Assembly: GCA_964545685.1 (NCBI GenBank)
Contig: CAZJHB010000001.1
Span: 118,470-182,469 of the forward strand
DNA: 64,000 nt
Reading direction: 5' to 3'
DNA from: an uncultured Candidatus Peribacteria bacterium
GTDB taxonomy: Bacteria; Patescibacteriota; Gracilibacteria; BD1-5; UBA6164
Shown here: in pieces, positions 26,581-54,514 of the stretch
Layout of the letters: each line of letters begins with the position of its first letter
Numbering within the stretch: position 1 is the stretch's first letter
Position numbers and translations under genes: made by a program
Notes under the pieces: generated by a model
The model's input: only the letters and a program-made list of their open reading frames with translations
Databases searched by the model: none
What the model was told of the DNA's origin: nothing

Positions 26581-26613
26581 ATAAAAAATGAATATTTTAT
26601 CATATATTGCCTA
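26581..26613 (+). promoter_or_regulatory. conserved ~35-nt upstream element, copy a
   Basis: ATAAAAAATGAATATTTTATCATATATTGCCTA followed directly by ATG. It is nearly verbatim at 38038-38074 and 54271-54304, and related at 35338-35371, 17731-17760 and 16670-16707. Confidence 0.55.
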
Positions 26614-26970
26614 ATGGAAATCATAAACCATTATAAATACCATTGTGTTGAGAATAACACATACTATCTGTCCGTTGTAATGCGCGATCCAAATGGTAAA
26701 GTTGATTGGAAAGATTTTGAATTTTTACCAAATCGATATACAGACACCGTTCCGATTCGTCGTTTGCGTAAAGGTAAGTGGTGTTATGACCACAGTCAAC
26801 TCGTGATGACACAAAAGTATTTGCCTCCACCGATGCCTGGTATGAGATCTAATGATGTTCGAAAGATACATGAATCGGATATCATTGAACCAACTTATCC
26901 TTTGTTAGACATCGACGGTTATCCTATCTGCATGATTCCGATGTCTATTCCAAGTGATTTCAATTACTAA
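26614..26970 (+). CDS. hypothetical protein (118 aa), G+C-richer than surroundings
   Basis: ATG start directly after the conserved element. It uses G/C-ending codons that are rare elsewhere in the window. No family recognised. Confidence 0.6.
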   Translation: MEIINHYKYHCVENNTYYLSVVMRDPNGKVDWKDFEFLPNRYTDTVPIRRLRKGKWCYDHSQLVMTQKYLPPPMPGMRSNDVRKIHESDIIEPTYPLLDIDGYPICMIPMSIPSDFNY

Positions 26971-26993
26971 AATGTGTTTTTTTTAATATTTTG

Positions 26994-27599
26994 ATGTTAC
27001 AAAAAATTTGTTTAAACTGCAATAGACCATATACAACTAAACATTGTTTATGTACAAGTTATAATAGAAAATCGGAATGGAAATTAGGTTGTTGGTTACA
27101 AGATAATAACTTCGAATATATCCAAGAATACAATTCACGTAAAATTAAAAAAAATACAAATTTTTATTATGATTTTTATTTACCAAATTATAATATCATT
27201 ATAGAATTAGATGGAGAACAGCATTTTTATGCTGTATCAAATATTGATATTCGTAAAATGAAATATGCTAATAGGGCTGGTATAAGTATTATTAGAATTC
27301 CACAGTTATTTGTTAAAGAAGATACAAATCAATGGGAAGAAATATTATTAAGTAAGATTAAAAAATATAAATATCCGAAAGTTGTATATATCGGTAAATG
27401 GAAATATAAAAATATGAAAAAGAAGTATTCGAAATGTATTAATATTTTACATTATATTTTATATAAGAAAGTTGATTATTATGATACATTATCATATAAT
27501 GAATTAAAAGAAATTGCTTGTAATAAGGGAATTATTAAATACTATAAAATGGATAAAAAACAATTGATACAAAAATTAAAATTAATTAATAACGTTTAA
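26994..27599 (+). CDS. PD-(D/E)xK (Vsr/DUF559-like) endonuclease with N-terminal Cys cluster and C-terminal SAP/Rho-N-like motif
   Basis: YYDFYLPNYNIIIELDGEQHF resembles the fDF.l.....iEvDG.qH core of Vsr/DUF559-type nucleases. CLNCNRPY...HCLC lies at the N-terminus. SYNELKEIACNKGIIKYYKMDKKQLIQKL resembles SAP/Rho_N helix-extended-helix motifs. Confidence 0.55.
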   Translation: MLQKICLNCNRPYTTKHCLCTSYNRKSEWKLGCWLQDNNFEYIQEYNSRKIKKNTNFYYDFYLPNYNIIIELDGEQHFYAVSNIDIRKMKYANRAGISIIRIPQLFVKEDTNQWEEILLSKIKKYKYPKVVYIGKWKYKNMKKKYSKCINILHYILYKKVDYYDTLSYNELKEIACNKGIIKYYKMDKKQLIQKLKLINNV

Positions 27600-28146
27600 G
27601 CATATTAATACAATCTTCATATGTATCAAATTCAAAATATTCTTTATATTCTTCAAAAATTTCACGTGTAAATGGAATAAATATTTTATCAGGAATTTCA
27701 TTTTCATCATGATTATAATCTTTTGAGGTATCGATATAATAATTTTTTTTATTATCCTGATATATTTTATAATAACCTTGATAATCCAAGTTTTTATAAT
27801 CAACAATATCAAAATCATCATCAAATGTTTGATGTATTAAAATATTATAATTTTTCATATAATATGTATTATTAATTAGATAAATATACGCATAAAGTCT
27901 ACATACACGCATAAATTTTTTAAGTTTAGTTGTAAATGAACAAATCGGTTGTTCTTCTTCTGATTCAAGAAGATCAATGATATAATCTTGATCAAATTCT
28001 ATTATAGAAATATCTACTTCTTTATTACTACAGGCATTAAAACAGTAAATCGGTTTATTATTTTTAATACCAATTACATAGTCATCTAAATTTTGATTAT
28101 AATAAATACCGTCTTTCAACATACTATTTTTATTAAGTATAATCAT
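27586..28146 (-). CDS. hypothetical protein (186 aa)
   Basis: Track ORF with ATG start. No family recognised. Confidence 0.55.
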   Translation of the reverse strand: MIILNKNSMLKDGIYYNQNLDDYVIGIKNNKPIYCFNACSNKEVDISIIEFDQDYIIDLLESEEEQPICSFTTKLKKFMRVCRLYAYIYLINNTYYMKNYNILIHQTFDDDFDIVDYKNLDYQGYYKIYQDNKKNYYIDTSKDYNHDENEIPDKIFIPFTREIFEEYKEYFEFDTYEDCINMLKRY

Positions 28147-28213
28147 TTTTTGTATTTACATTTATTAAATTCGAATAATATATAAATTGATTTTTTTTAT
28201 AATATTGAAAAAT

Positions 28214-28948
28214 ATGCCAATTGACAAGTATATTGATATTGAATTACTATTTATTGGTGAAATTAATGTACGCAAAGAAGTATATAAAAATAATGATTTA
28301 ACTAATCTGAAGAATAACATTAAGAAAAATGGACTTTTATCACCTTTACTGGTAATTCCAGTTGATGAAAAATATGAAATTATAGCTGGGCAGCGTAGAT
28401 ATTTAGCAATGCAACAATTAAAAATTAAAACTGTTCAATGTAAAGTATATCCTAATGATACGGATATTGAACAATTAAAATTAATTTCATTATCCGAGAA
28501 TATTCATCGTTTAAAAATGTCAAATATTGATAAAATGAATTCATATTATGAAATGTATATATTACTCGATAAAGATATGAAAAAAGCATCTAATAATATT
28601 GGTATTACAAAAAATACTTTGAAACAATATATTACAATTAAAGAACATATAGATCCAAATCTAATTAAACATATTGATTCGAAAAAAGAAAAGATCACAT
28701 TAAAAAATATGGAGCAAATTGCTTTGAAAACAAAAGATTATAGTTTACAAAAAATATATATTGATAATTTATTGAATGGAATAGATCCATTTAAAACAAA
28801 AGCAATTAAAGTAATCAAACCGAATATTAAATATGATAAAATCGAATGTTTTATTCCAGATATTAATAATATAGGTACATATTTACCTATACCAGAGGCG
28901 TGCTATAATGATATATATAATATTATTGAGAAATATAATAAAAAATAA
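28214..28948 (+). CDS. ParB/Srx-like N-terminal domain protein with HTH
   Basis: Track ORF starts at the TTG inside TAAATTGA (28183-28190); the ATG is at 28214 (MPIDKYIDIELL). GLLSPLLVIPVDEKYEIIAGQRRYLAMQQL resembles ParB GllqPi.V....yeiiaGERRyRAa. LSENIHRLKMS resembles ENlqRedLs. NNIGITKNTLKQYI is HTH-like. Confidence 0.75.
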   Translation: MPIDKYIDIELLFIGEINVRKEVYKNNDLTNLKNNIKKNGLLSPLLVIPVDEKYEIIAGQRRYLAMQQLKIKTVQCKVYPNDTDIEQLKLISLSENIHRLKMSNIDKMNSYYEMYILLDKDMKKASNNIGITKNTLKQYITIKEHIDPNLIKHIDSKKEKITLKNMEQIALKTKDYSLQKIYIDNLLNGIDPFKTKAIKVIKPNIKYDKIECFIPDINNIGTYLPIPEACYNDIYNIIEKYNKK

Positions 28949-28961
28949 TTATTTTTTATAT

Positions 28962-30092: not shown

Positions 30093-30126
30093 CTTACACT
30101 TTTAAAAAAAATACTCATTTATTTTA

Positions 30127-31908: not shown

Positions 31909-31952
31909 ATCATTAAAAAACAAAAAATGATAAATTTTACTATATCGTTATA

Positions 31953-32774: not shown

Positions 32775-32806
32775 TTTAAAAAATGATTTTTTATTGAAAT
32801 AATGTA

Positions 32807-32986
32807 ATGGTAGCTAAAAAGACGCAACAGCAGGCTGGTAAACTTTTAAGTGAAGGAACTCGTATGACACGTGAAGCCGGACATATGTTAGGAACTGCGA
32901 AAAATAAATCTCAGCAACAAAAAGCAGGTAAAATGTTGGCAGAAGGTAGAAAGAAACAACGTACCGCAGGTAAAATGATGCATTAA
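32807..32986 (+). CDS. unannotated small basic repeat protein (59 aa)
   Basis: Own translation: MVAKKTQQQAGKLLSEGTRMTREAGHMLGTAKNKSQQQKAGKMLAEGRKKQRTAGKMMH. It has four AG(K/H)(M/L)(L/M) repeats and is G+C-richer than the flanks. AAAAAATGATTTTTTATTGAAATAATGTA lies directly upstream. Confidence 0.5.
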   Translation: MVAKKTQQQAGKLLSEGTRMTREAGHMLGTAKNKSQQQKAGKMLAEGRKKQRTAGKMMH

Positions 32987-34865: not shown

Positions 34866-35339
34866 ATGTCATTTCTTAAAAAGGTTGTAGATAACTTACC
34901 AAAAGATATTAAAGAATTGGAACGTAGTTTAAATAATGATAAACAAATGATGTTCAATCGAGGTGTTAAAGAAGGTATTGATCGATCCGATAAAAAATAC
35001 GAAATTCTTATTAAGAAGTTAAATACTGAAAAGGCCAACTATAAATCACAATATGAATCGGTAAATCCATTACATATCAAAAAGGATGATCTTAAAAAAC
35101 CTATTAAGGTTAATAAAGGATATATTCTATTGATTTCCGATGATGGTAATTATTGTGTAGAAAGTGCCGACAAGCCCAATAATATGAGCAAACGTCTTAA
35201 AGGACGTAAATTAGTTATGATGCTGTATACAAAATATCTAGATACGGATATTGATAATATTAATACATTAATCTTTAATAGCAAAACAACTATTAACCGT
35301 GAAAAAATCCCAATGATGATTACATATTTATTAAATTAA
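34866..35339 (+). CDS. hypothetical protein (157 aa)
   Basis: Track ORF. AAAAATGAAAATATAATT lies ~25 nt upstream of the ATG. Confidence 0.55.
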   Translation: MSFLKKVVDNLPKDIKELERSLNNDKQMMFNRGVKEGIDRSDKKYEILIKKLNTEKANYKSQYESVNPLHIKKDDLKKPIKVNKGYILLISDDGNYCVESADKPNNMSKRLKGRKLVMMLYTKYLDTDIDNINTLIFNSKTTINREKIPMMITYLLN

Positions 35340-35371
35340 AAAATTAATATTTTTTTATATTATTGCTATCA
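35338..35371 (+). promoter_or_regulatory. conserved upstream element, related copy
   Basis: TAAAAAATTAATATTTTTTTATATTATTGCTATCA followed by ATG at 35372. It overlaps the stop of the preceding gene. Confidence 0.45.
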
Positions 35372-35773
35372 ATGTGGATAAGACTTACTGGGTGTAAACC
35401 ATTTTGGGTTGAGAACGATGAACTTATGAAAGGTACTCCGTTCGATATCAAGTACGTTTTTGCCATACATTGGTTTTTGAGAAACACACACCGGAAAGGT
35501 CTGTATAAGTTTTGTCGAAATTTTGATCTATTGGATACTATATGCCGCAAGGATAGTTTAAAAGGATTAAAAAACGTTCATCACTACAACAGTATCACAA
35601 GAGTGTATAAAATCATAAAGCACTATTATGTTAACATGGAGGGTGCCGCTATTCATAATCCCACAATTTTGATGCTTATGCATCACTTATCGGCGTATTT
35701 TGCATTGTATTATCACATTCATTCAACGAACATTGCAATGTTAGAGGCATCAAGTCATGAATATGACATATAA
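35372..35773 (+). CDS. hypothetical protein (133 aa), G+C-richer
   Basis: Track ORF 35363 starts at TTG; the ATG is at 35372 (MWIRLTGCKPFW). Composition is distinct from neighbours. Confidence 0.55.
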   Translation: MWIRLTGCKPFWVENDELMKGTPFDIKYVFAIHWFLRNTHRKGLYKFCRNFDLLDTICRKDSLKGLKNVHHYNSITRVYKIIKHYYVNMEGAAIHNPTILMLMHHLSAYFALYYHIHSTNIAMLEASSHEYDI

Positions 35774-36431: not shown

Positions 36432-37052
36432 TTATTCGTTAACATATTCGTAATAACAATAGTGTGTATTGGTTTTATCCTTTACAATATTGCATATATG
36501 ATCTTCTGTCATAGATCTAATATCAGGTTTAATAAATCCGAATTTATTTGAATTTTTAATATTTTTATATTTCCATTTATCTAATATTACATTATATCCA
36601 TCGGGTATATCTTTTCGGACAATATCATCAACAACTGTATATAACACACATTGATTGTTTATATTGTAAATTAATACAATACGGTGTGGTCCAATATCAA
36701 CGTAATCTCCTTCATATAGAATTCCAGTTGAAGTATTTTGTATTTCTCTATAAACATAATTAATATGATCAATTAATTTGGCATGATCATCATATTTATC
36801 AGTTAATAAGAAATAAATATCATACATAAATTTTTCGAATGTTATATAAAATGAATTATATTTTTTATAACCCCCCATTTCAAATACATCATAATCTTCA
36901 AGATATTTAATAGGAATTTTATGAATTTTAAAATTATTTTTAATACGTTCGATGAAAATTTTTGCAAATGGTAAAGCATCTGGGTATTTTAATTCAATAT
37001 AGTTGGCAACTTTTTGTAAATCGTCCATTACATTTATTAATATTTTTTTCAT
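36432..37052 (-). CDS. hypothetical protein, tandem paralog 1 of 2
   Basis: MKKILINVMDDLQKVANYIELKYPDALPF...YEYVNE versus ...YEYINE in the downstream copy. Colinear over the full length. Confidence 0.6.
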   Translation of the reverse strand: MKKILINVMDDLQKVANYIELKYPDALPFAKIFIERIKNNFKIHKIPIKYLEDYDVFEMGGYKKYNSFYITFEKFMYDIYFLLTDKYDDHAKLIDHINYVYREIQNTSTGILYEGDYVDIGPHRIVLIYNINNQCVLYTVVDDIVRKDIPDGYNVILDKWKYKNIKNSNKFGFIKPDIRSMTEDHICNIVKDKTNTHYCYYEYVNE

Positions 37053-37978: not shown

Positions 37979-38037
37979 TATATATATAATATTATTTACC
38001 TTATACTGATCTAGTAACTATCGCATATATAAAAAAA

Positions 38038-38074
38038 TAAAAAATGAATTTTTTTTCATATATTGCCTGAGAAC
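38038..38074 (+). promoter_or_regulatory. conserved ~35-nt upstream element, copy b
   Basis: ATAAAAAATGAATTTTTTTTCATATATTGCCTGAGAAC followed by ATG at 38075. The motif ATG is closed by TGA after 8 codons. Confidence 0.55.
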
Positions 38075-38338
38075 ATGCGTTTCACCGAAGAAGAATTTGG
38101 ATGGATCAAGTACATCCTTGCTGTGCGTTCATATATCGAAAAAGCTCTTGAGGAAGGAGAAGAGGATGAGGAGAAGATGAAAGTAATACTTTCTCTCGTT
38201 AGTTATTTGTATGAATTTGTAGAAAATCACTCATATGTGATAATCAACAAGTCACGCAAAATGAACAAGTACTTAACATTGCTTGATAAGGCGAGAGACA
38301 TGTATAACTACTGTACTCTGTGTGAAATGTATAATTAA
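38075..38338 (+). CDS. hypothetical acidic protein (87 aa), G+C-richer
   Basis: Track ORF 38063 starts at TTG; the ATG is at 38075 (MRFTEEEFGWIKY). It uses AAG/GAG/ATC/CTT codons that are unusual for this window. Confidence 0.55.
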   Translation: MRFTEEEFGWIKYILAVRSYIEKALEEGEEDEEKMKVILSLVSYLYEFVENHSYVIINKSRKMNKYLTLLDKARDMYNYCTLCEMYN

Positions 38339-38389
38339 AAGAGAAATCTTTTTTAATTAATATAAAATCAAATCTTTATCTAAAAGATT
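38337..38389 (+). terminator. two short hairpins between convergent genes
   Basis: AAAAGA-gaaa-TCTTTT (38337-38352) starts in the stop codon. AATCTTT-atcta-AAAGATT is at 38371-38389. This is consistent with the hairpin-type 3'-end signals described for mimivirus transcripts. Confidence 0.35.
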
Positions 38390-38422: not shown

Positions 38423-39541
38423 TTAGTATTTATATTTAATAGAGTCAATAGTATATTTATCATATAATATATTTATTAATTTTGTTGTTTTGTTTTCATT
38501 AATTTTACGTTTAATAAAGTTTACTTTTTTAGTTTTTTTATTAATTATAAATGTATTAATTTCACCATTTTTATTTTTAATATTTAATTCAATGCATGGT
38601 GACGTATTATACATATATTTTTCAATCAATATATTATTTTTATTTACACTTTCTAACTCATTAATTACTTTTTTATAGATGTCAATTGCCTTGTCATTAA
38701 ATACAATTTTTGTAGGATTAATGAGGTCTTCAAGCCATGATGGAGTATTGATTATAAAGCCTCTATTTTTATATTTATTAATCCATATGTAACAGTTTAA
38801 TAAATAAATATTATTATCAAAATTAATATTTGTTTTCATAGAAGGAATACCACATTTATCGTATACATATACTTTGCTATAACTATTATCGTAAATATAC
38901 GGATAATATTGTTTCAAACTATTAGACCATTTTAAACAAATAAAATTCATAACAGCGAAGAGATGAAAGCGTGAAATTATTTTGTTTTTATTTTTCGAAT
39001 ATATTAAATCATGATTATTATTTGTAAATCTTTGTGATGATTTTTTTTCATATTTTGATATAGCTTCCAAATTATCTGTAATAATATCAATATCATTATA
39101 TTTTATATTTAATGAGGGATATAGCAAAGACAATACAGAACTTCCGGTTATATAAATCGTATTTCCATAATATGTGCATAAATTATTTACTTTAATAAAA
39201 TCTTCAATAATATTTTTATCAATGAAAATAAATGATTTAAGATTATAATAATTATTTACTTCTAAATCATTGCTATACTCATATTCTTTATGCTGAATTG
39301 TTTCATCTTTTGGTTTAATTAACTTAAAAATATCTTCTGGAATATTATTATTTTCAATATCATTCATAAGATCATTGGTTCCTTTGTAATAATATATTTG
39401 ATTTAAAAATCTATAAATACATTCTTTATCCGATTTTAATACTTTAGTATTCTTACGAATTTCTTCAATAATACCAGATTCCTTTAAGAGTTGTGTAAAC
39501 ATAAACAATACCTGTATATCGTTAATAAAAATATTTTTCAT
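38423..39541 (-). CDS. hypothetical protein, possible Pol-beta-type nucleotidyltransferase fold
   Basis: 372-aa ORF. IYITGSSVLSLLYPSLNIKYNDIDIITD resembles the hG[GS]-x(9-15)-DhD NTase motif (weak, by eye). Confidence 0.5.
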   Translation of the reverse strand: MKNIFINDIQVLFMFTQLLKESGIIEEIRKNTKVLKSDKECIYRFLNQIYYYKGTNDLMNDIENNNIPEDIFKLIKPKDETIQHKEYEYSNDLEVNNYYNLKSFIFIDKNIIEDFIKVNNLCTYYGNTIYITGSSVLSLLYPSLNIKYNDIDIITDNLEAISKYEKKSSQRFTNNNHDLIYSKNKNKIISRFHLFAVMNFICLKWSNSLKQYYPYIYDNSYSKVYVYDKCGIPSMKTNINFDNNIYLLNCYIWINKYKNRGFIINTPSWLEDLINPTKIVFNDKAIDIYKKVINELESVNKNNILIEKYMYNTSPCIELNIKNKNGEINTFIINKKTKKVNFIKRKINENKTTKLINILYDKYTIDSIKYKY

Positions 39542-39561
39542 TTTTTTAAAATGAAAAATAT
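39531..39561. promoter_or_regulatory. perfect 14-nt inverted repeat carrying the AAAATGAAAAA motif on both strands (divergent gene pair)
   Basis: ATATTTTTCATTTT-ttt-AAAATGAAAAATAT. The left-arm CAT (39539-39541) is the start codon of the minus-strand gene. The plus-strand gene ATG is at 39580. Confidence 0.5.
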
Positions 39562-39579
39562 TTTAATATAAGTATAGCG

Positions 39580-40266
39580 ATGTCTTTTGAAATATTTAAT
39601 ATTAAATATTGGAGCAAATTTTTAATTAAAGATATTCATCAACACTTTGGTTATTATCCATCAATCGATGAATTAATCAAATGTTATAACAATGAAAATA
39701 CTTTACCAGAATTATCTTTGCAACAAAAATTATCATTAAAATATCATAATGATTTATCAAAAAAAATACCCCGAGATGATGTTAAAAAATATGTTGATGA
39801 ATTTATGAATGACTTAAAATATAATAAAAAGTATTATATCGTTGGTTCATATTGTAGAGGAAAAAAAATGTGTGGCGACATTGATTTGATTATTCAAACT
39901 AATCAAAAAACATGGTGTTATAATGCCCGTAAACTATCTTCCATTATTTTGGACGCATTTGTAATTAGCGATAAAAAGGCTCATTTTATATGTAAATCAA
40001 AAATTGATAACAAAATATTTCAATTGGATATATTCTTATCGTCAGTCGAAGCAATGCCATTTATGATACTAGATAAATCTTCTGGCGTTGATTTTATAAC
40101 TGATATTAGAAAATTATGTTTAACACTTTATAATATCCATTTATCGAATGTAGGATTTAAAGATCAACACAATAATTTATTAACCGATATAAATAAAAAG
40201 ATTAAAAATGAACAAGATATATTTAAATTTTTAAAGTTTGAATATATTAAACCAGAAGAAAGATAA
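39580..40266 (+). CDS. DNA polymerase family X (small, Pol-beta-like)
   Basis: YYIVGSYCRGKKMCGDIDLIIQT resembles the GS.RRGk...gDiDiLi NTase motif. The C-terminal EQDIFKFLKFEYIKPEER resembles the E.eiF..LGl.yipPe.R ending of Pol X enzymes. Confidence 0.8.
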   Translation: MSFEIFNIKYWSKFLIKDIHQHFGYYPSIDELIKCYNNENTLPELSLQQKLSLKYHNDLSKKIPRDDVKKYVDEFMNDLKYNKKYYIVGSYCRGKKMCGDIDLIIQTNQKTWCYNARKLSSIILDAFVISDKKAHFICKSKIDNKIFQLDIFLSSVEAMPFMILDKSSGVDFITDIRKLCLTLYNIHLSNVGFKDQHNNLLTDINKKIKNEQDIFKFLKFEYIKPEER

Positions 40267-40295: not shown

Positions 40296-40745
40296 TTAAA
40301 CAACATCGTATAGGAATAATCCCATTTTTAATACATTACCATCAATATCATTAATATCTACGTATGGACGACCAGATTGTGTTTTCTTAATAAAATCAGA
40401 TCTTTTAAATTTCTTAATATCATCGTAATTGATCCAATGCAATGAACCCATTTCTTCTGGCACAAATGACGATAAATCATATTGTTCTTTTAATTCAATA
40501 TCTACTACATTAATGACAGGAATATCACCCTTTCTAAATTCACCAAATGATTTAATTTTATCTTTAGTAATCAATCCACTGCTTTCTTCTTCGATTTCTC
40601 TTAATACAGCAGCATGCATTGTTTCACCATTTTCAATTTTACCTCCAAGTAATTCAACTGTACCGATTCTATCACTTCTTGTTTTTTCACCAACAAGAAC
40701 TAAATTTTTAAAACGAATACAACCAAATACTGCTTCGATAGCCAT
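40296..40745 (-). CDS. Nudix hydrolase
   Basis: Track ORF starts at TTG (40757); the ATG is at 40745 (MAIEAVFGCI). Nudix box GGKIENGETMHAAVLREIEEESSG. Confidence 0.8.
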   Translation of the reverse strand: MAIEAVFGCIRFKNLVLVGEKTRSDRIGTVELLGGKIENGETMHAAVLREIEEESSGLITKDKIKSFGEFRKGDIPVINVVDIELKEQYDLSSFVPEEMGSLHWINYDDIKKFKRSDFIKKTQSGRPYVDINDIDGNVLKMGLFLYDVV

Positions 40746-40816
40746 GATATATAACAATATATAATATATTTTTTCATTTTTTAAATTATAAAAAATGATT
40801 TATATTACTTATATAA

Positions 40817-41239
40817 ATGCCGGGAAAGGATATAGTATATGACAAATTTATATCCAAGTATCGTGCACGTTATAAAAATGTTACTAACGCAGATATTAAA
40901 AAATTAACAAATAAAATTACACATAATCCTTTAGTATTAAATATAAATTTAAAAAATGAATATTATAACATGATATTTAAATCATTATTTAAAAAATATT
41001 TGATAAAAAATATTTCTATAAAACAAACAAATTTTATTGATATAACCGATTATTGCAAACATAATATATTTGCAATAAAAAATTACTATAAAAAATTATT
41101 TAATATTAATTTACTTATATTAATCATAAGTAAAATAGAATTTATAAATAATCCCGTGTATTTTAATTTATTTAACAACTGTTGTTGTTTATATCGAATA
41201 CTATATATACATCATTTTGAACATTCACAAAAAAAATAA
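40817..41239 (+). CDS. hypothetical protein (140 aa), low complexity
   Basis: Track ORF. AAAAAATGATTTATATT lies ~20 nt upstream of the ATG. Asn/Ile/Lys-rich. Confidence 0.4.
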   Translation: MPGKDIVYDKFISKYRARYKNVTNADIKKLTNKITHNPLVLNINLKNEYYNMIFKSLFKKYLIKNISIKQTNFIDITDYCKHNIFAIKNYYKKLFNINLLILIISKIEFINNPVYFNLFNNCCCLYRILYIHHFEHSQKK

Positions 41240-42766: not shown

Positions 42767-42897
42767 TTATAACCATTGTATTAGAAAATAATCATTTTTT
42801 ACATATTAATGTTAATTTTTTTAATAATTTATATCCAAAAAATTTTCATTTTATAAAAAAAAATAATAATATATATATATACAAATGGTGTGGCAAC

Positions 42898-42946
42898 ATA
42901 ACTTGTGAGGCTATATTCCACGATTAATGAAAAAATTTTCATTTTT
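42898..42946. repeat. 49-bp direct repeat, copy 1
   Basis: ataacttgtgaggctatattccacgattaatgaaaaaattttcattttt is identical to 43008-43056. It contains the palindrome ATGAAAAAATTTTCAT. Confidence 0.85.
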
Positions 42947-43007
42947 TAAAAAATGCCACATATATTCATACTTATATATATATATATATGCACTTATTAT
43001 GGTAGAT

Positions 43008-43056
43008 ATAACTTGTGAGGCTATATTCCACGATTAATGAAAAAATTTTCATTTTT
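43008..43056. repeat. 49-bp direct repeat, copy 2 (abuts the stop of the 43055 gene)
   Basis: Identical to copy 1 and 110 nt away. A (TA)8-9 run at 42973-42989 lies between the copies. Confidence 0.85.
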
Positions 43057-43540
43057 AATAAATACATGACATGATATGCAACATGTTCAACCATTCAGCA
43101 ATATCTGTTTTTGGGTCCCATAATACTTCAGTTGGAAATTTTTCTTTTTTTAATATCCAATTGATGACATGATACCCACATGTATATCCATCGACCTGTT
43201 GACCATATTCGAAATCAATCAATACATCTTCACCATAATTTGTGTACGCATAATTCAATGCCTGTATTATATGGCTGTCGTGTATTAATGGATCAAAAAT
43301 GGTTAAAGTGTTATAAATTGCATTATAACATAAACCCATCCAATGATTGGCATTGACCAAAAGAAGCGTATAGTAGATCAGTGATTGATCATTTTCTAAC
43401 CCAAGTGGTTCAACTGCGCTTGCATTATTGCTTGAAAACTGCGAAGCAACAACGACATTGAGCTTTTGGTTTTTCCAGTTCATCATGTCAACGATATTGA
43501 CAATCTGCTCTTTTTCCAACATTAATTTGTTTGGTTCCAT
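43055..43540 (-). CDS. Ulp1/C48-like cysteine peptidase (short form)
   Basis: NANHWMGLCYNAIYNTLTIFDPL provides the HW...DP His/Asp region. QQVDGYTCGYHVINWIL provides the Q...CG catalytic Cys region. Confidence 0.6.
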   Translation of the reverse strand: MEPNKLMLEKEQIVNIVDMMNWKNQKLNVVVASQFSSNNASAVEPLGLENDQSLIYYTLLLVNANHWMGLCYNAIYNTLTIFDPLIHDSHIIQALNYAYTNYGEDVLIDFEYGQQVDGYTCGYHVINWILKKEKFPTEVLWDPKTDIAEWLNMLHIMSCIY

Positions 43541-43581: not shown

Positions 43582-45801
43582 TTATAAATATAAATCGTCT
43601 ACATCATCATCCATGATAATGTTATTATTTGTAATAAATATCATATTTTTTTCATTATATAAATCACATATACTAATACCAGATGTTAAATCTTTATTGG
43701 TATAATTTGGAATAATTCTATTTGCATCATAAGATTCCGTGATTTTTTTGACTTCTGCGGAATTTTCAATAATTTGTTTTCCTTTATATCCAGCCAATTT
43801 CTCGAATAATTTTTCTGATTTAATTTTACTAAAATATTCAGAAGGCATTACTAAAATGAAATTAATATTATAATCATATTGTTTTTTAACATTGATATTT
43901 TTTTCCTCAATATTGTATAGAATTTTAGCAATAATACTAGTAGCACCTTCTAAAAATTGAAAGTTATCAATAATAATAATACCCTTTTTTCGGTTATATT
44001 CTTCACTAATTTTATCATCCAATAATGTTTGAAACATCTGAGCGTTGATAATATATTCAACACAATTAATATAAGATACATGATCGATTGATTTATCATG
44101 TTGATATTTATTGGCGGTTTCTAATGCAATAGTAGATTTACCTGTACCAATACCACCGTGAATAAGTGTAATTTTTACACCATTCTTTTTTAATTCTAAA
44201 TTATTAATAGTTTGATTAATAGCGTTATCTGCTATACTTATATTCTTAACAAATCCGTTTTTTGAAATATTTGAACTAATTGTAAAATAATTACCACCAG
44301 GTGGAATACATTCACTAATAGCCTTTGCAATCATTTCATCGGTAAGAACAATGTTATTCATCTTTATTTTAGTAAAATCGATTGAATTATCATTGTTTAA
44401 TTCTTCTATAATATTATTGCACAGCATGTTTTGAACACGTGAAAATGCTTCACTTATCATGGCACCAGTAAAACCCGATGTCATAAATGCAAATTGATCA
44501 ATATTAGGATTTTTAATAATATTATTTTCAATATAAGGTTGTAATTGTAATTCTATCATTTCTTTACGTCCTTCAGTATCGGGAATACCAACTTCGATTT
44601 TAAGTCCTAAACGACCAGAACGAAGAATAGCATCATCAAGTAAATCTAATCTATTTGTTGTTCCAATAACAATATAATTATCGTTCTTTTTAATACCATC
44701 TATCTTAGATAAAAATTGATTAACAACTTTATCATCAATACCTGTACCACCAGAACTGCTTCCGCGTTTTTTTAGCAATGAATCAATTTCATCGATAATA
44801 ATTAAGAAAAATCCATCAGGATTACTCTCGGCTTCGGCAAAAATATCTCTGATATTAGATTCAGACTGACCAACATATTTATTTAAAACTTCCGGACCAG
44901 ATATTATTTTTGGTTCATTGGTAAAGCTAGCTAATTTAGAAATTTTACTAGCAATTAATGATTTTCCTGTTCCCGGTTGACCATAAAGAATACAACCTTT
45001 TTGTTTAAGATTTTTTAAATTCGGCATACCAACACCTCGAGGAAGTAAAAGTTGATTATATATTTCTCTTAAAATATGCGATGCACCACCAATACCAATA
45101 TTTTTATATGTAATTTCATTAGGTGGAATAAGTCCTTTTAGGACACTATCACCACGATAGTTCATATAATTTTTTTCATTGATATAATTAATATATGTAT
45201 ATAATGAATCTTTTTCAAGTAAAATTTCAGTTTTTTCAATATCAATAACACCTTCCGTGTCATTATCATTAATAGTAATCGGAACAATGTTTAATGTTAT
45301 TGTTTTATTTAAATTTTTAGGTGTATATTTAATAAAATATACACGGTTTTTAATAAAATACGATTGTGATAAGTATTTTTTAATTATATCGATCAATTCA
45401 GCCGCATCTATCACTATATTCATGTCATATGTAGTAGTTAAATAAACATTGAAAATGATTTTATTTATAATATTATTATTTGTAACAATAAAAGGTTCAA
45501 TATCATAATCTTTTTTAGGATTTATTTCTAAACATTTATAATTATTACTTGAAATCATATAATAGTTATTTACAATTCTTTTTGGAATTCTAATCATGTT
45601 ATATGTATTTTCAACATTTTCAATACTATTAATATGATCCATAAAACATACTTGATTTATCAATGGCATATGATTAATATCTTTAATAATTGCATAATAA
45701 ATTTTCTGACCATTAATTTCAGATTCTGATAATAAATTCATATATTCTCTTCTTAGAAAAATTTTCGAACTAACAACGTCTTCGATACAACAGATTTTCA
45801 T
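43582..45801 (-). CDS. NSF (N-ethylmaleimide-sensitive factor)/Sec18-like double AAA+ ATPase
   Basis: The D1 domain CILYGQPGTGKSLIASKISKLASFTNEPKIISGPEVLNKYVGQSESNIRDIFAEAE ... LIIIDEIDSLLKKRG ... VVNQFLSKIDGI ... VIGTTNRLDLLDDAILRSGRLGLKIEVGIPDTEGR tracks NSF-specific strings (EPKvVNGPEiLNKYVGESEaNIR, VVNQLLSKiDGV, GRLEvkmEIgLPDekGR). A second, degenerate P-loop is LIHGGIGTGKST. Length is 739 aa (NSF is ~745). Confidence 0.75.
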   Translation of the reverse strand: MKICCIEDVVSSKIFLRREYMNLLSESEINGQKIYYAIIKDINHMPLINQVCFMDHINSIENVENTYNMIRIPKRIVNNYYMISSNNYKCLEINPKKDYDIEPFIVTNNNIINKIIFNVYLTTTYDMNIVIDAAELIDIIKKYLSQSYFIKNRVYFIKYTPKNLNKTITLNIVPITINDNDTEGVIDIEKTEILLEKDSLYTYINYINEKNYMNYRGDSVLKGLIPPNEITYKNIGIGGASHILREIYNQLLLPRGVGMPNLKNLKQKGCILYGQPGTGKSLIASKISKLASFTNEPKIISGPEVLNKYVGQSESNIRDIFAEAESNPDGFFLIIIDEIDSLLKKRGSSSGGTGIDDKVVNQFLSKIDGIKKNDNYIVIGTTNRLDLLDDAILRSGRLGLKIEVGIPDTEGRKEMIELQLQPYIENNIIKNPNIDQFAFMTSGFTGAMISEAFSRVQNMLCNNIIEELNNDNSIDFTKIKMNNIVLTDEMIAKAISECIPPGGNYFTISSNISKNGFVKNISIADNAINQTINNLELKKNGVKITLIHGGIGTGKSTIALETANKYQHDKSIDHVSYINCVEYIINAQMFQTLLDDKISEEYNRKKGIIIIDNFQFLEGATSIIAKILYNIEEKNINVKKQYDYNINFILVMPSEYFSKIKSEKLFEKLAGYKGKQIIENSAEVKKITESYDANRIIPNYTNKDLTSGISICDLYNEKNMIFITNNNIIMDDDVDDLYL

Positions 45802-45862
45802 ATGTAACGATTATTATATTATTTTTTCACTTTTTAAAAATGAATATATATATATATAATTA

Positions 45863-46273
45863 ATGTCCTTTAAAACTGAAACGTTAAAACTATTTTCCGA
45901 TACAATATTTGAATATATATCAAAGGAAGTGTTATATGATCAAGAGCATTGTTTGCTTGATTTAATTAATTATTTGACAATTGTACAGTTTTCAAATTTT
46001 AGAAACTTTTTAACACAATCTAATATTATTTACAAATATATCATAGATGATGATGATTATATAATTGATATCGACAATATTGATTATACGCCTGTTGATT
46101 TTAAAAAAATAAATGAAATTATTGATGATGATAACGATTCGAAATTAATACATGCAATGTCATGTTTATATATATTATATTATATAAATCATGAAAAGTT
46201 AGATATAATAGATTTAAATGATTATTTTAAATTATTTAGTGAGTATATTATTAATAAAAATATATTTTTTTAA
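45863..46273 (+). CDS. hypothetical acidic protein (136 aa)
   Basis: Track ORF. AAAAATGAATATATAT lies upstream. Asp/Ile-rich. Confidence 0.5.
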   Translation: MSFKTETLKLFSDTIFEYISKEVLYDQEHCLLDLINYLTIVQFSNFRNFLTQSNIIYKYIIDDDDYIIDIDNIDYTPVDFKKINEIIDDDNDSKLIHAMSCLYILYYINHEKLDIIDLNDYFKLFSEYIINKNIFF

Positions 46274-49095: not shown

Positions 49096-49590
49096 TTAGA
49101 CAATTTTTTTATATTCAAAACATAATTTAGATATACTATTTTCATTTTTATAATATTCAATTCGAATAATTTCACCAACATCACCAAACATATGAACCGA
49201 TAATGGATCATTAATGTCTATTTCTTGAAGATACTCATATTTGTCTAATATTTCTTCGTGATCTTTATTAATTATGGTAATATTTTTAATATTATAAAAT
49301 AATACATTCTGAAAGAAAGGAATATACAATAAATTAATATCATTCATTACAACATTATTATAATATATTACGATATTTTTTTTCTTGTTATCAATATTTA
49401 ATCCATATATTACAATTTTATCATAACTATTTAATTTATTAATAAGTGTTATATATTCTTTGGCGGATTTACTTGTATTTACAACTACACATGCTACTTT
49501 TTTGTTCATAAACTCACCAAAATAATATATTATATTGGTATCTTTTTTGACAGTGTATTTAATATTGAGATATTCAAACCACTCTTCCAT
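49096..49590 (-). CDS. RNA polymerase subunit RPB5-like
   Basis: The C-terminal EIDINDPLSVHMFGDVGEIIRIEYYKNENSISKLCFEYKKIV resembles LPrI...DPvaryyG.krGqvvkIiR.SetaGryitYR.V. The track start at 49614 lies in a promoter-like AAAAATGCTTTTTT word, so the ATG at 49590 (MEEWFEYLN) is preferred. Confidence 0.55.
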   Translation of the reverse strand: MEEWFEYLNIKYTVKKDTNIIYYFGEFMNKKVACVVVNTSKSAKEYITLINKLNSYDKIVIYGLNIDNKKKNIVIYYNNVVMNDINLLYIPFFQNVLFYNIKNITIINKDHEEILDKYEYLQEIDINDPLSVHMFGDVGEIIRIEYYKNENSISKLCFEYKKIV

Positions 49591-49622
49591 TACATATAAT
49601 AAGTAAAAAAGCATTTTTAGTA

Positions 49623-49832: not shown

Positions 49833-49948
49833 TTATTCATTTAATTAGTAAATATTATATTTTTTATATATTTCATAATAATACTTTTTTCGAATTATAA
49901 AGATATTATCTGGTCCATTATTGTTATATTAAAAAAAAAAACAATTCT

Positions 49949-50104
49949 TTAATGTCGTAATTCAACATTAATCATGTTATAAAGTTCATCAGCCGATAAC
50001 ACATATGCGCCAATGTCATCTTCTGTCGGAGTTACTGGATCGCAATCAAAATTGATATGAATATTGTTCATATCACATTCAATGCTAAATAAATCGTCGT
50101 ACAT
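49949..50104 (-). CDS. hypothetical small acidic protein (51 aa)
   Basis: The track ORF start at 50137 is the TTG inside the AAAATTGA octamer. The first ATG is at 50104 (MYDDLFSIECD), ~30 nt downstream of the octamer. Confidence 0.4.
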   Translation of the reverse strand: MYDDLFSIECDMNNIHINFDCDPVTPTEDDIGAYVLSADELYNMINVELRH

Positions 50105-50133
50105 CAGATATACAGTATAATATGAAAAAAAAA

Positions 50134-50141
50134 TCAATTTT
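50134..50141 (-). promoter_or_regulatory. AAAATTGA octamer
   Basis: Plus-strand tcaatttt, upstream of the 50104 ATG on the minus strand. Confidence 0.45.
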
Positions 50142-50194
50142 CAAATCAACTTAACTGTGTTTAATAAATTACTTTTTTTATTATTATATGAAAC

Positions 50195-53100
50195 ATGGAC
50201 GATTTTATTCCGCATACATATAACATTAGACTTGCTAATGAAACAGAATTAAAAAATCGATCAGTTAAAATAATTACACTTAATAATAATATACAATCAA
50301 TATATAATGATACATATCTTGGTATAGCAGATGATCAAAAAATTTGTGAATTTTGTAATCAAAATAAAAATAAATGTCCCGGACATTTAGTATTATACGA
50401 ATTGCAAGATTATATTCCAAATCCTATTGTAGTTAATATGTTTAAAATTGTTTTGAAATCAGTATGTGCCAATTGTGGTGCTATACCTTTAAATAATGAA
50501 AAGTTAAATGCCTTATATATTAATAAAAATAAACTTATACATATTGCTGTAGCAGATGCTATAGAGAAAGAAGAAGTTTGTCCACACTGTGGTAAAAAAA
50601 TACAAATTTATAAAACTAAATCGGAATATTTATGGTCTAAATATATTTTAAATGATATAGTAATTGATAACAATATGGAAATTAAAAAATTATTGGATAA
50701 ATTTCCGGATGAACACTGTAAATATATTAATTTAGAAGCTGATCATTCTCATCCAAAATTATTCATGACAAAATATTTTACTATTCCTAATTATAATATT
50801 CGAACAGAAAAACGTGATATTAAAACAGGTAAAGTTAGTATTTTGGAAGATATATTAAAAAAATTACATATTTTTAATAAAGAATCATTTTATAGTAGTA
50901 AATCGAATGAAAAATTAAAAGATATTGACAAAATTACACGTCCAATGAAAGTATTTGCATGTGTATCACGAATGATAACACAATTGGGTGAAAAAGATGA
51001 AAATCTTATCAATAGAGTTATTTATGATCAAACTAAACAATTGAACCATATCCCTATGGGAATAGGTGATAAAGAAAAAGATGGTTTCTGGAGACAAGAA
51101 TTAACAGCTAAACGTATGAATAATACTGCTCGTTCTGTTATTGGTCCCGATCCTAACCTTAAACCATGGCAGATAGGTATACCGAAATATGCTGCAGAAA
51201 AACTATTTTATCCAGAAGTTATTAATCATTTAAATATTGATAAAATAAGATCATTGGTAAGCAATGATACATATCCCAAAGTACATAAAATTTTAAAAAA
51301 GAATGGTAAAAATTTATATGTTTCAAATAATAAACAATTTATAAACAACAGTTTAATGATCGGTGATATTGCGTATAGAACAGTTATGGATAATGATATT
51401 ATTGTAACTATGCGTAATCCAGCAAATCATAAAGGTTCATGGTCAGCATTGCATGCTGTGATTCATAACGAAACAAATATAAAATTACAACCATCACTGT
51501 GTCCTAAATTCAATGCAGACTTTGACGGTGATGAAATGAATATATACTGTCCAATTGATCCAAAGGTAATATATGATATATATTTACAATTATCTATTGA
51601 AACACAAGTTATGGATGAAAAATACATGCGTCCTACAATAACATTAACACAAGATCCTTTAATTGGTATTATTCATCTTTCGTATAATAATTATAAATTA
51701 AACAAAGATGAAATTAATTATTTAATTAAAGATTTGAATATTAATGATCTGAAAGATAATCCAACGGGTAATGATATTATCAGTAAGATTATCCCAAAAG
51801 GTATTTACATAACAAGTAATTCGAATGTTAAGGATTATTATAATAAATTCAATGTATCTTTCCCAAGTACTATTATTGAAGATGGTGAAATTAAACAAGG
51901 AATCATCGATAGTGTATTCGTAGGTAATAAAGGTGGTAAGCTTATTGTTGCTATTTTTAATAAATATGGAGCTAAACGTGCAACCGAATTTATTGCAGAT
52001 GCAATTACATTAGGTAATAGATCATGCCAAATTATCGGTAATACGTTACCAATGGCGTGGTTCTCAAAAAATAAAGATAAAATTACACGTAATATAGAAA
52101 AAAACAAACAAGAAATTATCGATCTTTCGATGAATTATACAATGAATAATATCAATATTCCAACAAGTATTGATCCTAAAAAATATATTGAAAATCTAAC
52201 AAGTATTTATTTGAATAAACATTCGTCTACTATTGAAAAATTATCAATTAATAATATGCTTAACAGTCCACTATTCTTTAATATGCTTATTAAAAATTTT
52301 GATACACAAATTAATCAAATTTATGGTGTTATTGGTCAAGTATCAATTAATTCAGAAAGACCAGAATTACAACCAAATTATACGAATAGAGCATTGCGGT
52401 CATTTGCTTTCAATAGTAATTTTGCTGAACACAGAGGTTACATATCTAATGGATATAACAGCGGAATGACTGAAGATGAATTATTCTTTGCAGCAATGGA
52501 AGGACGAAAAGATTTATATGCAAGTAAAGCAAGTGTATCCGAGGAAGGTGAGTTTGATAAAAAAATCAATCATAATCTTCTTAATATCCATTATTCAAGC
52601 AATAATTGGGTTGCTGGAGCAAATAATAAAATTATTTCTTTAGATTATGGGATGTATAATTGCTATACTATATATAAATCAAAAATTAAATATTACATTA
52701 CACAGATGAACAATGAAGAAATTAATGAATTAAGTAATATTAAAGAAGAAATTGAAGCACTATTCAACGATAGAGATGAAAACAGAAATGTTTTAGTAAA
52801 CAGTTATAGTGTATCGCAAAAGAAAGTATTCGATGAAAATGATGTAACAATTACAATCCCATTTCCATTAGAAACAATAATAAAGGAACTAAACACGGAT
52901 GTATTGAAAAAAGATAAAATTATTTCGAATACAGAATGTTATAATATAGTTAAAGAATTTAATAATAATTTGCCTTTACTGTTCGGTGATAAAATTAATA
53001 ATATCACCGAATCTCATACTCAAATTATTAAAAAAATTATTAGATTTTATTTTGCAAGCAATATAGTAATAAAAAAATACAAATGGGATAAAGAAACATT

Positions 53101-54271
53101 AATTCAATGTTTGGATATTATTAAAAATGCTTATAATAAGGCTATTCTTGGTTATTATGAACCAATAGGTCCGATAGCTGCACAATCCATTGTCGAACCA
53201 ACGAAGCAAGCAAAACTAAATGCCCTGCATACTAAAGTCATTTTGATTGGTGCTGTTTCTACTTTAAATCAAACAAGAGGTTTGAAACGCATTGATGAAT
53301 TAATTAATGGAAGTAGTGAAACCGAAAATATTATTAAAAATACAATTACATATTTATCTTTAAAACCTGGAGTCGATTCTAATATTGTATTATTGAAATT
53401 AAAAAATATATCACTAAATAATTTACTATATAATTTTCAAATTAGAATCGAAGATAAAATTTCATATATTGAGTTGACTATGGATACTGATGCAATGATC
53501 GAAAATGGTATGATATATCATATGATCGTTATTAAGGAAATTATTCGTAATAAATATCAAGATAAAATCAATGATATTAAAATTGATAAACCAAGTGTTA
53601 TTAATCCAAAAATAACTATTACAATTAAAAATATTAATGATAAACAATTAATTGAATTAGCACATGATATTAAAAACAATACCATTATAAATGGTTATGA
53701 TGGAATTAATAATGCTACTAAAGTAATAATTAAAAATAAACCATTATTTAAAGATGATGGTATTGTTTATTTAGATGAAGAAAGAATTTATGTAAATAGC
53801 ACATTTAGTAATATACTAAAATATGCCGATGTTTTAAATAATTATATTGATTTTAGTAAATCATATTCAAATAACATACATGATATGTATAATATATTTG
53901 GCATTGTTGGTGTTAAGAATTTAATTAAGCAAGAATTTATTTTGGAAGATATTGTTAAGATTAACGAAGAACATGTTGATCTTTTGATTAATTACATATG
54001 TTCGAAGAAAAAAATGACAGGTATTAAGTATTCTACAAATATTAGAGATTCAGAAGATTTGTTTAGTAAAATAACATTTGCAGAAGTTACTAATGGTTTA
54101 GAAAATATTATACGTCATAAAAATATATCATCTGCAAATAATACTATACCGAGTATTATTATGAAAAATAAAAATAGTATTGGTACAGCTGCGGTGGAAT
54201 GTGGAACTGATTTTAATGTATTATTTGATAATAAAACATATCAAGAACTGGCTGAAGAATTTGGATTATAA
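50195..54271 (+). CDS. rpb1: DNA-directed RNA polymerase largest subunit (RPB1 homolog)
   Basis: Catalytic NADFDGDEMN (~51512-51541). N-terminal zinc motif CEFCNQNKNKCPGH. RQELTAKRMNNTARSVIGPDPNL resembles R..l.GKRvdfsaRsVI.pDP.l. The ORF is continuous over 1358 aa. Confidence 0.97.
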   Translation: MDDFIPHTYNIRLANETELKNRSVKIITLNNNIQSIYNDTYLGIADDQKICEFCNQNKNKCPGHLVLYELQDYIPNPIVVNMFKIVLKSVCANCGAIPLNNEKLNALYINKNKLIHIAVADAIEKEEVCPHCGKKIQIYKTKSEYLWSKYILNDIVIDNNMEIKKLLDKFPDEHCKYINLEADHSHPKLFMTKYFTIPNYNIRTEKRDIKTGKVSILEDILKKLHIFNKESFYSSKSNEKLKDIDKITRPMKVFACVSRMITQLGEKDENLINRVIYDQTKQLNHIPMGIGDKEKDGFWRQELTAKRMNNTARSVIGPDPNLKPWQIGIPKYAAEKLFYPEVINHLNIDKIRSLVSNDTYPKVHKILKKNGKNLYVSNNKQFINNSLMIGDIAYRTVMDNDIIVTMRNPANHKGSWSALHAVIHNETNIKLQPSLCPKFNADFDGDEMNIYCPIDPKVIYDIYLQLSIETQVMDEKYMRPTITLTQDPLIGIIHLSYNNYKLNKDEINYLIKDLNINDLKDNPTGNDIISKIIPKGIYITSNSNVKDYYNKFNVSFPSTIIEDGEIKQGIIDSVFVGNKGGKLIVAIFNKYGAKRATEFIADAITLGNRSCQIIGNTLPMAWFSKNKDKITRNIEKNKQEIIDLSMNYTMNNINIPTSIDPKKYIENLTSIYLNKHSSTIEKLSINNMLNSPLFFNMLIKNFDTQINQIYGVIGQVSINSERPELQPNYTNRALRSFAFNSNFAEHRGYISNGYNSGMTEDELFFAAMEGRKDLYASKASVSEEGEFDKKINHNLLNIHYSSNNWVAGANNKIISLDYGMYNCYTIYKSKIKYYITQMNNEEINELSNIKEEIEALFNDRDENRNVLVNSYSVSQKKVFDENDVTITIPFPLETIIKELNTDVLKKDKIISNTECYNIVKEFNNNLPLLFGDKINNITESHTQIIKKIIRFYFASNIVIKKYKWDKETLIQCLDIIKNAYNKAILGYYEPIGPIAAQSIVEPTKQAKLNALHTKVILIGAVSTLNQTRGLKRIDELINGSSETENIIKNTITYLSLKPGVDSNIVLLKLKNISLNNLLYNFQIRIEDKISYIELTMDTDAMIENGMIYHMIVIKEIIRNKYQDKINDIKIDKPSVINPKITITIKNINDKQLIELAHDIKNNTIINGYDGINNATKVIIKNKPLFKDDGIVYLDEERIYVNSTFSNILKYADVLNNYIDFSKSYSNNIHDMYNIFGIVGVKNLIKQEFILEDIVKINEEHVDLLINYICSKKKMTGIKYSTNIRDSEDLFSKITFAEVTNGLENIIRHKNISSANNTIPSIIMKNKNSIGTAAVECGTDFNVLFDNKTYQELAEEFGL

Positions 54272-54304
54272 TAAAAAATGAATATTTTTTCATATTTTGC
54301 CAAA
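54271..54304 (+). promoter_or_regulatory. conserved ~35-nt upstream element, copy c
   Basis: ATAAAAAATGAATATTTTTTCATATTTTGCCAAA followed by ATG at 54305. It starts in the rpb1 stop codon and contains the ATGAA-tatttt-TTCAT hairpin. Confidence 0.55.
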
Positions 54305-54514
54305 ATGTACAGATTTGTTCCATTTGATACACCTCGTAGAGCTATGGTTATAAAACCAGAACCTAAACAAGTGTTGTTTCCTCCAATTGCCCCGAAATCT
54401 AAAAAAAAATTATATGTCAATGGGCGTTTGAGATTACCGTGTATTAAAAACACACGTATATGTGAAGAATCTGTCTTTAAGGAGAAATTTGTTTTGCCGC
54501 AAATTTCTCATTAA
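54305..54514 (+). CDS. hypothetical basic protein (69 aa), G+C-richer
   Basis: The track ORF at 54278 begins at the ATG inside the conserved element. In the two sister elements (26581, 38038) that ATG is closed by a stop, so the homologous start is 54305 (MYRFVPFDTPRR). Confidence 0.5.
   Translation: MYRFVPFDTPRRAMVIKPEPKQVLFPPIAPKSKKKLYVNGRLRLPCIKNTRICEESVFKEKFVLPQISH

Follow-up and report, generated by a model that had tools for sequence, protein, structure and literature searches.

Why should short genes of no recognisable family, lying far apart from one another, be preceded by almost the same upstream sequence? The question is raised by a stretch of 64,000 nucleotides from contig CAZJHB010000001.1 (positions 118,470 to 182,469; hereafter the window), in which an earlier note, made from the sequence alone, had described a nearly verbatim element of ca. 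35 nt in front of five small genes richer in G+C than their surroundings. Two interpretations had been offered, a distinct expression class comprising late or virion genes, and a common foreign or mobile origin that had brought its own control region. Analysis of the window showed that the element is not a new kind of control element but a known promoter type, of which a tight subfamily stands before foreign-looking ORFans, i.e. open reading frames (ORFs) lacking homologs. The reading favoured here, to which a probability of about 0.6 is assigned, is that near-identical modules of an early-type promoter precede recently acquired accessory genes, and that these modules were copied or were imported together with the genes.

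A near-identical 31-bp module before three small genes

Three copies of the module, referred to below as the trio, were located on the forward strand of the window. Copy 1 (ATAAAAAATGAATATTTTATCATATATTGCC, 26581..26611) begins right after the stop codon of gene 25933-26580 and consists of a core AAAATGA, an A/T spacer and an initiator-like TTGCC block; copy 2 (ATAAAAAATGAATTTTTTTTCATATATTGCC, 38037..38067) has an exact twin elsewhere in contigs from the same samples; and copy 3 (ATAAAAAATGAATATTTTTTCATATTTTGCC, 54271..54301) overlaps the last base of the stop codon of the gene encoding the RNA polymerase subunit Rpb1 (50195-54271, +). The first and third had been placed correctly in the earlier note, and the second, given there as 38038, was off by one base. 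The near-identity of the three is real: each of the three pairs agrees at 29 of 31 positions, and a search of the window with a 29-mer, allowing up to three mismatches, returned three matches as compared to none in 100 shuffles. Among 528 pairs of promoters the mean identity was 17.8 positions (s.d. 3.1), which places the trio 3.6 s.d. above the mean, and only the promoters of tandem RCC1 paralogs were equally alike (30/31). The bounds of the module are sharp. It extends over 31 bp, from 4 nt before the core through the TTGCC block, and the flanks of the trio agree at 6–9 of 20 positions on both sides. Each copy carries one A/T swap of its own, three in all, at sites where other promoters differ freely among themselves, and an ATG is found 2–7 nt downstream of every copy.

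The module is also present outside the window. Comparison of copy 2 with the Logan contigs of two runs revealed an exact twin, as a 30/31-mer, that has unrelated flanks, is followed by GACA-ATG and is carried by contigs at virus depth. A second outside copy, with three mismatches and TCG-ATG behind it, lies on a 3.4-kb (3,409-nt) contig from the same samples, the depth of which was 22.7 versus 10.6 for the virus in X1, and 15.2 versus 12.8 in X2; this contig may represent a repeat, or may be a small replicon in its own right. The module family has at least five members, three in the window and two outside. Scans for the element gave 0 matches in IMG/VR and 0 in GTDB genomes, and the 16 matches in a metagenome collection were all chance occurrences without an A-run or an ATG behind them.

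The trio also contains the inverted repeat ATGAA-N6-TTCAT, which had been read as a short hairpin. Its predicted folding energies, −0.9, −2.8 and −4.2 kcal/mol (z 0.13, −0.36 and −1.97), are no better than those of shuffled sequences, the stem in copy 1 has only 4 bp, and the repeat lies upstream of the putative transcription start site. The hairpin was discarded as thermodynamically trivial, and no tRNA or Rfam family was found.

The module is a form of the early-type promoter of a giant virus

The window has a G+C content of 23% and is the sequence of a giant virus (Nucleocytoviricota, the nucleocytoplasmic large DNA viruses or NCLDV). Besides Rpb1, the large subunit of a multisubunit RNA polymerase, it encodes several SF2 helicases, a CDC48-like AAA ATPase, RCC1-repeat paralogs, TK, dNK, PolX, two NUDIX proteins, ParB-N, a protein kinase and a C48 protease, and a gene for a family-B DNA polymerase (polB) is cut by the left window edge. 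Proteins identical to those of the window were observed only on contigs of a single set of marine-sediment samples, the longest being a 187-kb contig and a 183-kb JGI contig (3300029449 Ga0243128_1000001), in which the window lies at about 118262-182261. When strain variation was sought for the ratio of nonsynonymous to synonymous substitution (dN/dS), the ENA and JGI assemblies of the region proved identical to the window. In a database of 5.8 billion proteins, Rpb1 showed ca. 25% identity to its best matches, and a search of IMG/VR for relatives by way of Rpb1 found none. Judging from these sequence comparisons, the virus appears to belong to a very deep-branching, unsampled NCLDV lineage. 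By E-value, cellular Pol II and African swine fever virus (ASFV) were nearer to Rpb1 than poxvirus RPO147.

All counts of promoters and of G+C content at third codon positions (GC3) refer to the 69 genes called in the window. A core AAA(A/T)TGA was found 22–37 nt before the ATG in 33 of these genes, its position peaking sharply at 25–34. As the instances were anchored on AAA(A/T)TGA, the invariance of AAA, T, G and A follows from the way they were chosen; outside the core, A stood at both −1 and −2, and a T-run occupied +10 to +14. The fuller form of the core is (A)AAAA(A/T)TGA, and of its variants AAAAATGA is commoner than AAAATTGA (25 versus 8 of 33). When a 20-nt position weight matrix (PWM) was used for the core, 36–38 of 69 genes matched at that distance, as compared to 1–2% of control positions. 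The core is followed by ca. 15 G-free A/T positions and then by an (A/T)TTG block, the first G after the core falling at +23 to +25 in 18 of the 33 promoters, mostly in the context ATTG or AATG. A conserved TATTGCC just before the start had been regarded as a mark of the element; its TTGCC block is indeed kept in the trio, whereas the (A/T)TTG part is general to the promoters of this virus.

Genes carrying the core include TK, dNK, ParB, PolX, the two NUDIX genes, the kinase, a helicase and the RCC1 paralogs, and genes without it include Rpb1, a 912-aa helicase and a SNF2 helicase. The polB gene (start 3424, −) has AAAATTGATTTTTATAATA 27 nt upstream of its ATG, preceded by a stop codon and a T8 run (window 3425-3471, −). 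The identification of the element with the NCLDV early-type promoter, in the form used by this virus, is well supported at the sequence level. The proposed class of late or virion genes was rejected, its lateness being contradicted by the core of the trio, which is of the early type, stands at the canonical distance and is shared by polB and the TK, dNK, PolX, NUDIX, ParB and kinase genes. It had also been reasoned that occurrence of the element before ordinary genes would speak against a special status: the general core does stand before such genes, and the tight 31-bp version was found only in the trio within the window.

Runs of T are abundant past stop codons. A T-run of at least 6 was found within 30 nt past the stop in 46 of 69 genes, versus 16 of 69 for A-runs, and inside ORFs the sense strand contains 11 T-runs of that length versus 281 A-runs, a difference that is in part one of lysine versus phenylalanine usage. 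This distribution suggests a poly-T terminator rule as in ASFV and poxviruses, and the T-runs after ORFs are in this respect similar to the poxvirus U5NU signal and to the poly-T terminators of ASFV. Terminator-like runs are found behind the genes of copies 1 and 2, a T8 run at 26977..26984 (+), 6 nt past the stop of 26614-26970, and a T6 run at 38349..38354 (+), 10 nt past the stop of 38075-38338. A further T8 run, at 54515..54522 (+), lies immediately past the stop of 54305-54514, and behind it comes the early core that serves the kinase gene 54554-55510.

Related promoters have been described in several NCLDV. The early consensus of vaccinia virus (VACV) is AAAANTGAAAA, at −25 to −13, and a promoter of invertebrate iridescent virus 6 (IIV-6) is AAAATTGATTATTTGTTTT, at −19 to −2 (PMC5294985); in mimivirus AAAATTGA precedes 45% of genes, within 150 nt upstream of the start codon, and the motif of Cafeteria roenbergensis virus (CroV) precedes 35% (PMC5294985). 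The early promoter motif of ASFV lies 9–10 bp from the transcription start site (TSS), D1133L/G1340L, the homologs of D6/A7, are proposed to bind it, and the terminators are poly-T (PMC7163114). AAAnTGA was found 20–40 nt upstream of the ATG in most NCLDV bins of Loki's Castle sediment (Bäckström et al., PMC6401483). The promoter of the window is similar to those of poxviruses and ASFV in having an A-run and TGA core followed by A/T-rich sequence, in its narrow spacing to the gene start, in its occurrence before about half of the genes, including those for nucleotide metabolism and replication, and in being accompanied by a virus-encoded RNA polymerase. It differs from them in the very short distance from core to ATG (22–37 nt), which implies 5′ untranslated regions (5′UTRs) of a few bases, in the second block, which is (A/T)TTG where the initiator of ASFV has an initiating A, and in that no homolog of D6/A7, the VETF of poxviruses, is recognisable. 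With the motif of the Mimiviridae and CroV it shares the octamer family and a similar proportion of genes; however, AAAAATGA outnumbers AAAATTGA and the position is tighter than the 150 nt of mimivirus. With the Loki's Castle bins it shares the distance to the ATG and a similar habitat. The string AAAATTGATTTTTATAATA of polB is almost the same as AAAATTGATTATTTGTTTT, the experimentally mapped promoter of the DNA polymerase gene of IIV-6, and stands before the same gene, a likeness of sequence only. A near-verbatim 31-bp subfamily before compositional outliers is not described in the literature on mimivirus and sediment NCLDV that was examined. The promoter model that emerges, with core, G-free spacer, initiator-like TTG and poly-T end, is usable for annotating a deep-branching uncultured giant virus, and lets its genes be sorted into early-type and other classes.

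Two further observations concern promoter classes and arrangement. AAA immediately upstream of the ATG was commoner in genes without the early core (9 of 36) than in genes with it (2 of 33; p = 0.047), examples without early core being 8719-8949, 19786-20580, 27586-28146, 36432-37052, 38423-39541 and 49096-49614 (all −). By analogy with the poxvirus late start context TAAATG, which they recall, these genes may constitute a second promoter class. In very short divergent intergenic regions, early cores placed back to back form palindromes of the type TTTTTCATTTTT…AAAAATGAAAAA, found at 7562-7636, 25110-25167, 39541-39580, 40745-40817 and 45801-45863.

Foreign composition of the genes behind the module

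Each copy of the module is followed by a short ORFan on the forward strand. Copy 1 precedes 26614..26970, encoding 118 aa (GC 0.373, GC3 0.353); copy 2 precedes 38075..38338, encoding an acidic protein of 87 aa, helical-looking from its sequence (GC 0.352, GC3 0.420, the maximum in the window); and copy 3 precedes 54305..54514, encoding a basic protein of 69 aa (GC 0.338, GC3 0.243), whose coding status is less certain as the antisense frame is almost as open. Two other genes had been grouped with these, 35372..35773 (+), encoding a helical ORFan of 133 aa (GC3 0.381), and 32807..32986 (+), encoding a basic, internally repetitive ORF of 59 aa (GC 0.40, GC3 0.267). The coordinates given for the five ORFs were right, and, in view of their own composition, chance is an unlikely reason for the frames being open (P ≤0.0007 for 26614, 35372 and 38075, 0.006 for 54305 and 0.014 for 32807). 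Among the outliers described below, the three shortest ORFs have chance-open P values of 0.006–0.015, and in two of them, 54305 and 32807, antisense frames are nearly as open.

The richness in G/C claimed for these five genes was confirmed, as they are among the seven of highest GC3 of the 69. The other two are 43055..43540 (−), encoding 161 aa (GC3 0.352) with no early core upstream, and 49949..50104 (−), encoding 51 aa (GC3 0.288). GC3 of the seven was 0.24–0.42, versus 0.151±0.034 in the rest (z 2.7–7.8), and the islands of high G+C in the window coincide with the outlier ORFs. A preference for G/C-ending codons had been noted as well, and held up: comparing flagged genes with the rest, AAG (0.31/0.09), GAG (0.23/0.07) and ATC (0.31/0.09) were raised, as were GAC (0.30/0.09) and CAG (0.39/0.12). 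C and G at the third position were both increased, about equally, ca. 2–2.6-fold overall and ca. threefold for individual codons, and the flagged proteins contain less I, K and N and more A, H, M, P, R and W, an amino-acid usage less governed by A/T. This looks like a compositional difference of the whole gene, not tRNA-driven selection.

GC3 was equal in genes with and without the early core. Five of the 33 genes with the core are GC3 outliers, and all three trio genes are among them (chance P = 0.002, post hoc).

The small proteins were described earlier as lacking a recognisable family, and the searches agree with this. Pfam, PHROGs and NCBIfam gave nothing credible; word-indexed searches with the small proteins returned self matches only; an exhaustive HMMER search with the 118-aa protein returned only translated tandem-repeat junk; and scans of IMG/VR with three of the small proteins, and of the PDB with the 161-aa protein, gave no match. 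Single-sequence AlphaFold models of the 118-aa and 133-aa proteins, with predicted local distance difference test (pLDDT) values of 34 and 46, were unusable.

The 161-aa outlier 43055-43540 (−) contains weak CE-clan (C5/C48) protease-like motifs, in the string HW…D…Q…CG.H, and matched the resident C48 gene 18840-19748 weakly, at the motif level. With a match of this kind only, it was not retained as a paralog of the resident gene; on the evidence of these motifs it may be a second, foreign protease gene.

Other upstream sites had been listed as related copies, at 35338, 32778, 16670, 13170 and 17731. These agree with the module at 23–24 of 31 positions at best, and were reassigned to the ordinary promoters that precede about half of the genes. 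The site before the 133-aa gene (AAAAAATTAAT, 35336..35366, +) is a degenerate promoter with a core lacking G and 7/31 mismatches to the module, and that before the 59-aa gene (32776..32806, +) is an ordinary early-type promoter with the top PWM score of the window. The copies at 13170, 16670 and 17731 are part of a separate duplicated upstream segment, considered at the end of the text. The promoter of the 51-aa gene (AAAATTGATTTTTTTTTCATATTATACTG, 50105-50144, −) has the T-run and TTCATAT in common with the trio, and 15/20 downstream positions.

Origin of the module family

Near-identical modules and foreign composition, taken together, point to one shared cause, the youth of these genes. 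According to this reading, the genes would not yet have drifted to the equilibrium of 23% G+C, and the modules, whether copies of a single template or imports that accompanied the genes from one donor with the same promoter type, would not yet have diverged. An early transcription factor packaged in the virion, of the poxvirus D6/A7 (ASFV D1133L/G1340L) type, would bind the core and then recruit the viral RNA polymerase containing Rpb1. The predicted transcription start is the G/C of TTGCC or a base beside it, ca. 24–26 nt past the first A of the core, which leaves 5′UTRs of 2–10 nt, and the predicted end is the T-run. Near-verbatim modules before compositionally foreign ORFans would then mark the youngest genes of the genome. 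Of the foreign or mobile origin proposed in the earlier note, the part that concerns foreignness fits both the composition and the sharply bounded, near-identical modules; the idea that the genes brought a control region of their own does not fare as well, the promoter being of the virus's own type, and neither mobile hallmarks nor a donor having been found.

Several observations weigh against this explanation as a whole, the promoter included. A factor of the D6/A7 type is not recognisable by sequence among the proteins of the window, and two candidate SF2 helicases gave no sequence match to the VETF or NPH-I chains of the PDB. It is by analogy with other viruses that early timing, a TSS and a part of the T-runs in termination are proposed, and no RNA runs containing the sequence were found. 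A mechanism able to copy a 31-bp module with such sharp edges would have to be supposed, and selection specific to a subclass and acting on every position could be another cause of the likeness. That the genes were recently acquired is read from their composition, since family-profile, protein and IMG/VR searches revealed neither a homolog nor a donor of the small genes. ORFan status does not set these genes apart and carries little weight in so divergent a lineage, as the ca. 25% identity of Rpb1 illustrates. Lastly, the GC3 outliers at 43055 and 35372 lack a good early core, so that the classes defined by composition and by promoter overlap only in part.

Selection on a dedicated regulon is a clearly less probable explanation. 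The extra conserved part, TGAAT-A/T-run-TTCATAT-TTGCC, would be read by an additional sequence-specific factor, or the module would be the optimal version of a strong or immediate-early promoter; selection would keep the copies identical, and the G+C-rich codons would have been selected because they allow abundant small proteins to be expressed efficiently. In line with this, conservation stops exactly at the functional edges of the promoter, the inverted repeat ATGAA-N6-TTCAT has the geometry of a dimer site, and the GC3 outlier 49949 possesses the T-run and TTCATAT part too. Scored against a PWM built without them, the trio ranks 2nd, 5th and 6th of 33, near the top without being outliers. 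However, promoters of equal PWM score are not alike among themselves, and therefore the identity of the trio is not explained by closeness to the consensus; the palindrome, moreover, is imperfect and is broken in copy 1. Such a regulon would also need a separate explanation for the composition of its genes. GC3 is unrelated to promoter score among ordinary early-core genes (rho 0.06, p 0.78), the joint rise of G- and C-ending codons together with the amino-acid shift has a compositional look and not a tRNA-driven one, and conserved core genes such as Rpb1 have an ordinary GC3 (0.148). Were the modules merely a strong-promoter subclass, the finding would be an ordinary one.

More doubtful still is that the 31-bp module serves as the recombination handle of mobile single-gene cassettes, or is the signature of a virophage-, transpoviron- or plasmid-like satellite or episome in which every gene has this stereotyped promoter. 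Foreign genes would be captured with this portable handle, expressed early and shuffled, and the 3.4-kb contig would be such a free or repeated element. There is precedent for this in T4-like phages, where promoter-early stem-loop (PeSL) cassettes are mobile regulatory units that shuffle ORFans (PMC2839356), and in marseilleviruses multiple promoter copies have been suggested to favour the fixation of acquired genes (PMC8875882). As with PeSL, small ORFans at scattered places in the genome have highly similar early promoter modules directly in front of them: at least five sharply bounded, identical or near-identical modules precede unrelated ORFans, and the composition of the genes is unlike that of the resident genome. 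The contig with the extra copy varies in depth relative to the virus between X1 and X2, and if copy 3 and its ORF are taken out on paper, the stop codon, the T8 run and the next promoter join up in the normal way. By contrast to PeSL, which belong to another virus realm with another transcription machinery, the module contains no stem-loop terminator, its stem consisting of 4–5 A/T-rich pairs. Around the three cassettes, terminal inverted repeats and target duplications were absent, only A/T-rich repeats (70–88%) at chance level being present. No integrase, transposase or virophage hallmark genes (capsid, ATPase) were found near them, the neighbours being ordinary viral genes. Among the available contigs no presence/absence polymorphism of the cassettes was seen, only spurious A/T-rich joints, the two assemblies compared were identical, and IMG/VR, the metagenome collection and GTDB yielded no related genome. 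Should the modules turn out to act as recombination handles, they would reveal a way in which giant viruses bring new genes under the early programme, a mechanism so far documented only for T4-like phages.

That the likeness is due to chance or A/T low complexity, or to a transcribed RNA hairpin or 5′UTR element, is highly improbable even though A/T-rich similarities and short palindromes are common at 23% G+C, as the shuffles, the pair identities and the hairpin energies effectively refute it, and the repeat lies upstream of the putative start and has no match in Rfam.

Other duplicated promoter regions in the window

Apart from the modules of the putatively acquired genes, sequence with promoters or promoter-like parts is repeated elsewhere in the window. 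The paralogs 13206-14042 and 16708-17643 share 64% protein identity, yet a stretch of ca. 90 nt upstream of them is almost identical (…TACGTGCGATGCATTAGTATAGTAAGAATTTTTTT…AAAAAATGAATAT), so that the upstream segment has been kept better than the genes themselves. The duplicated segment is located at 13090-13205, 16590-16707 and 17690-17760, the third copy (17731) being partial and having no gene behind it.

The region 42867-43062 (−) consists of two tandem units, each with a promoter-like AAAAATGAAAATTTTTTCATTAATCG, an identical 25-nt leader TGGAATATAGCCTCACAAGTTAT, a T-run at the end and no ATG ORF behind it. Hairpins of −11.6 and −15.2 kcal/mol were predicted in it (z −1.7 and −2.7). The two may represent short transcription units that code for no protein, or else the stubs of decayed genes.

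The promoters that equal the trio in likeness belong to the RCC1-repeat genes at 58622-63264 (−), a tandem array of three genes and a 66-aa remnant. In this array the early promoter of the next gene sits in the conserved 3′ end of the preceding copy, and it is two of these promoters that are identical at 30 of 31 positions.

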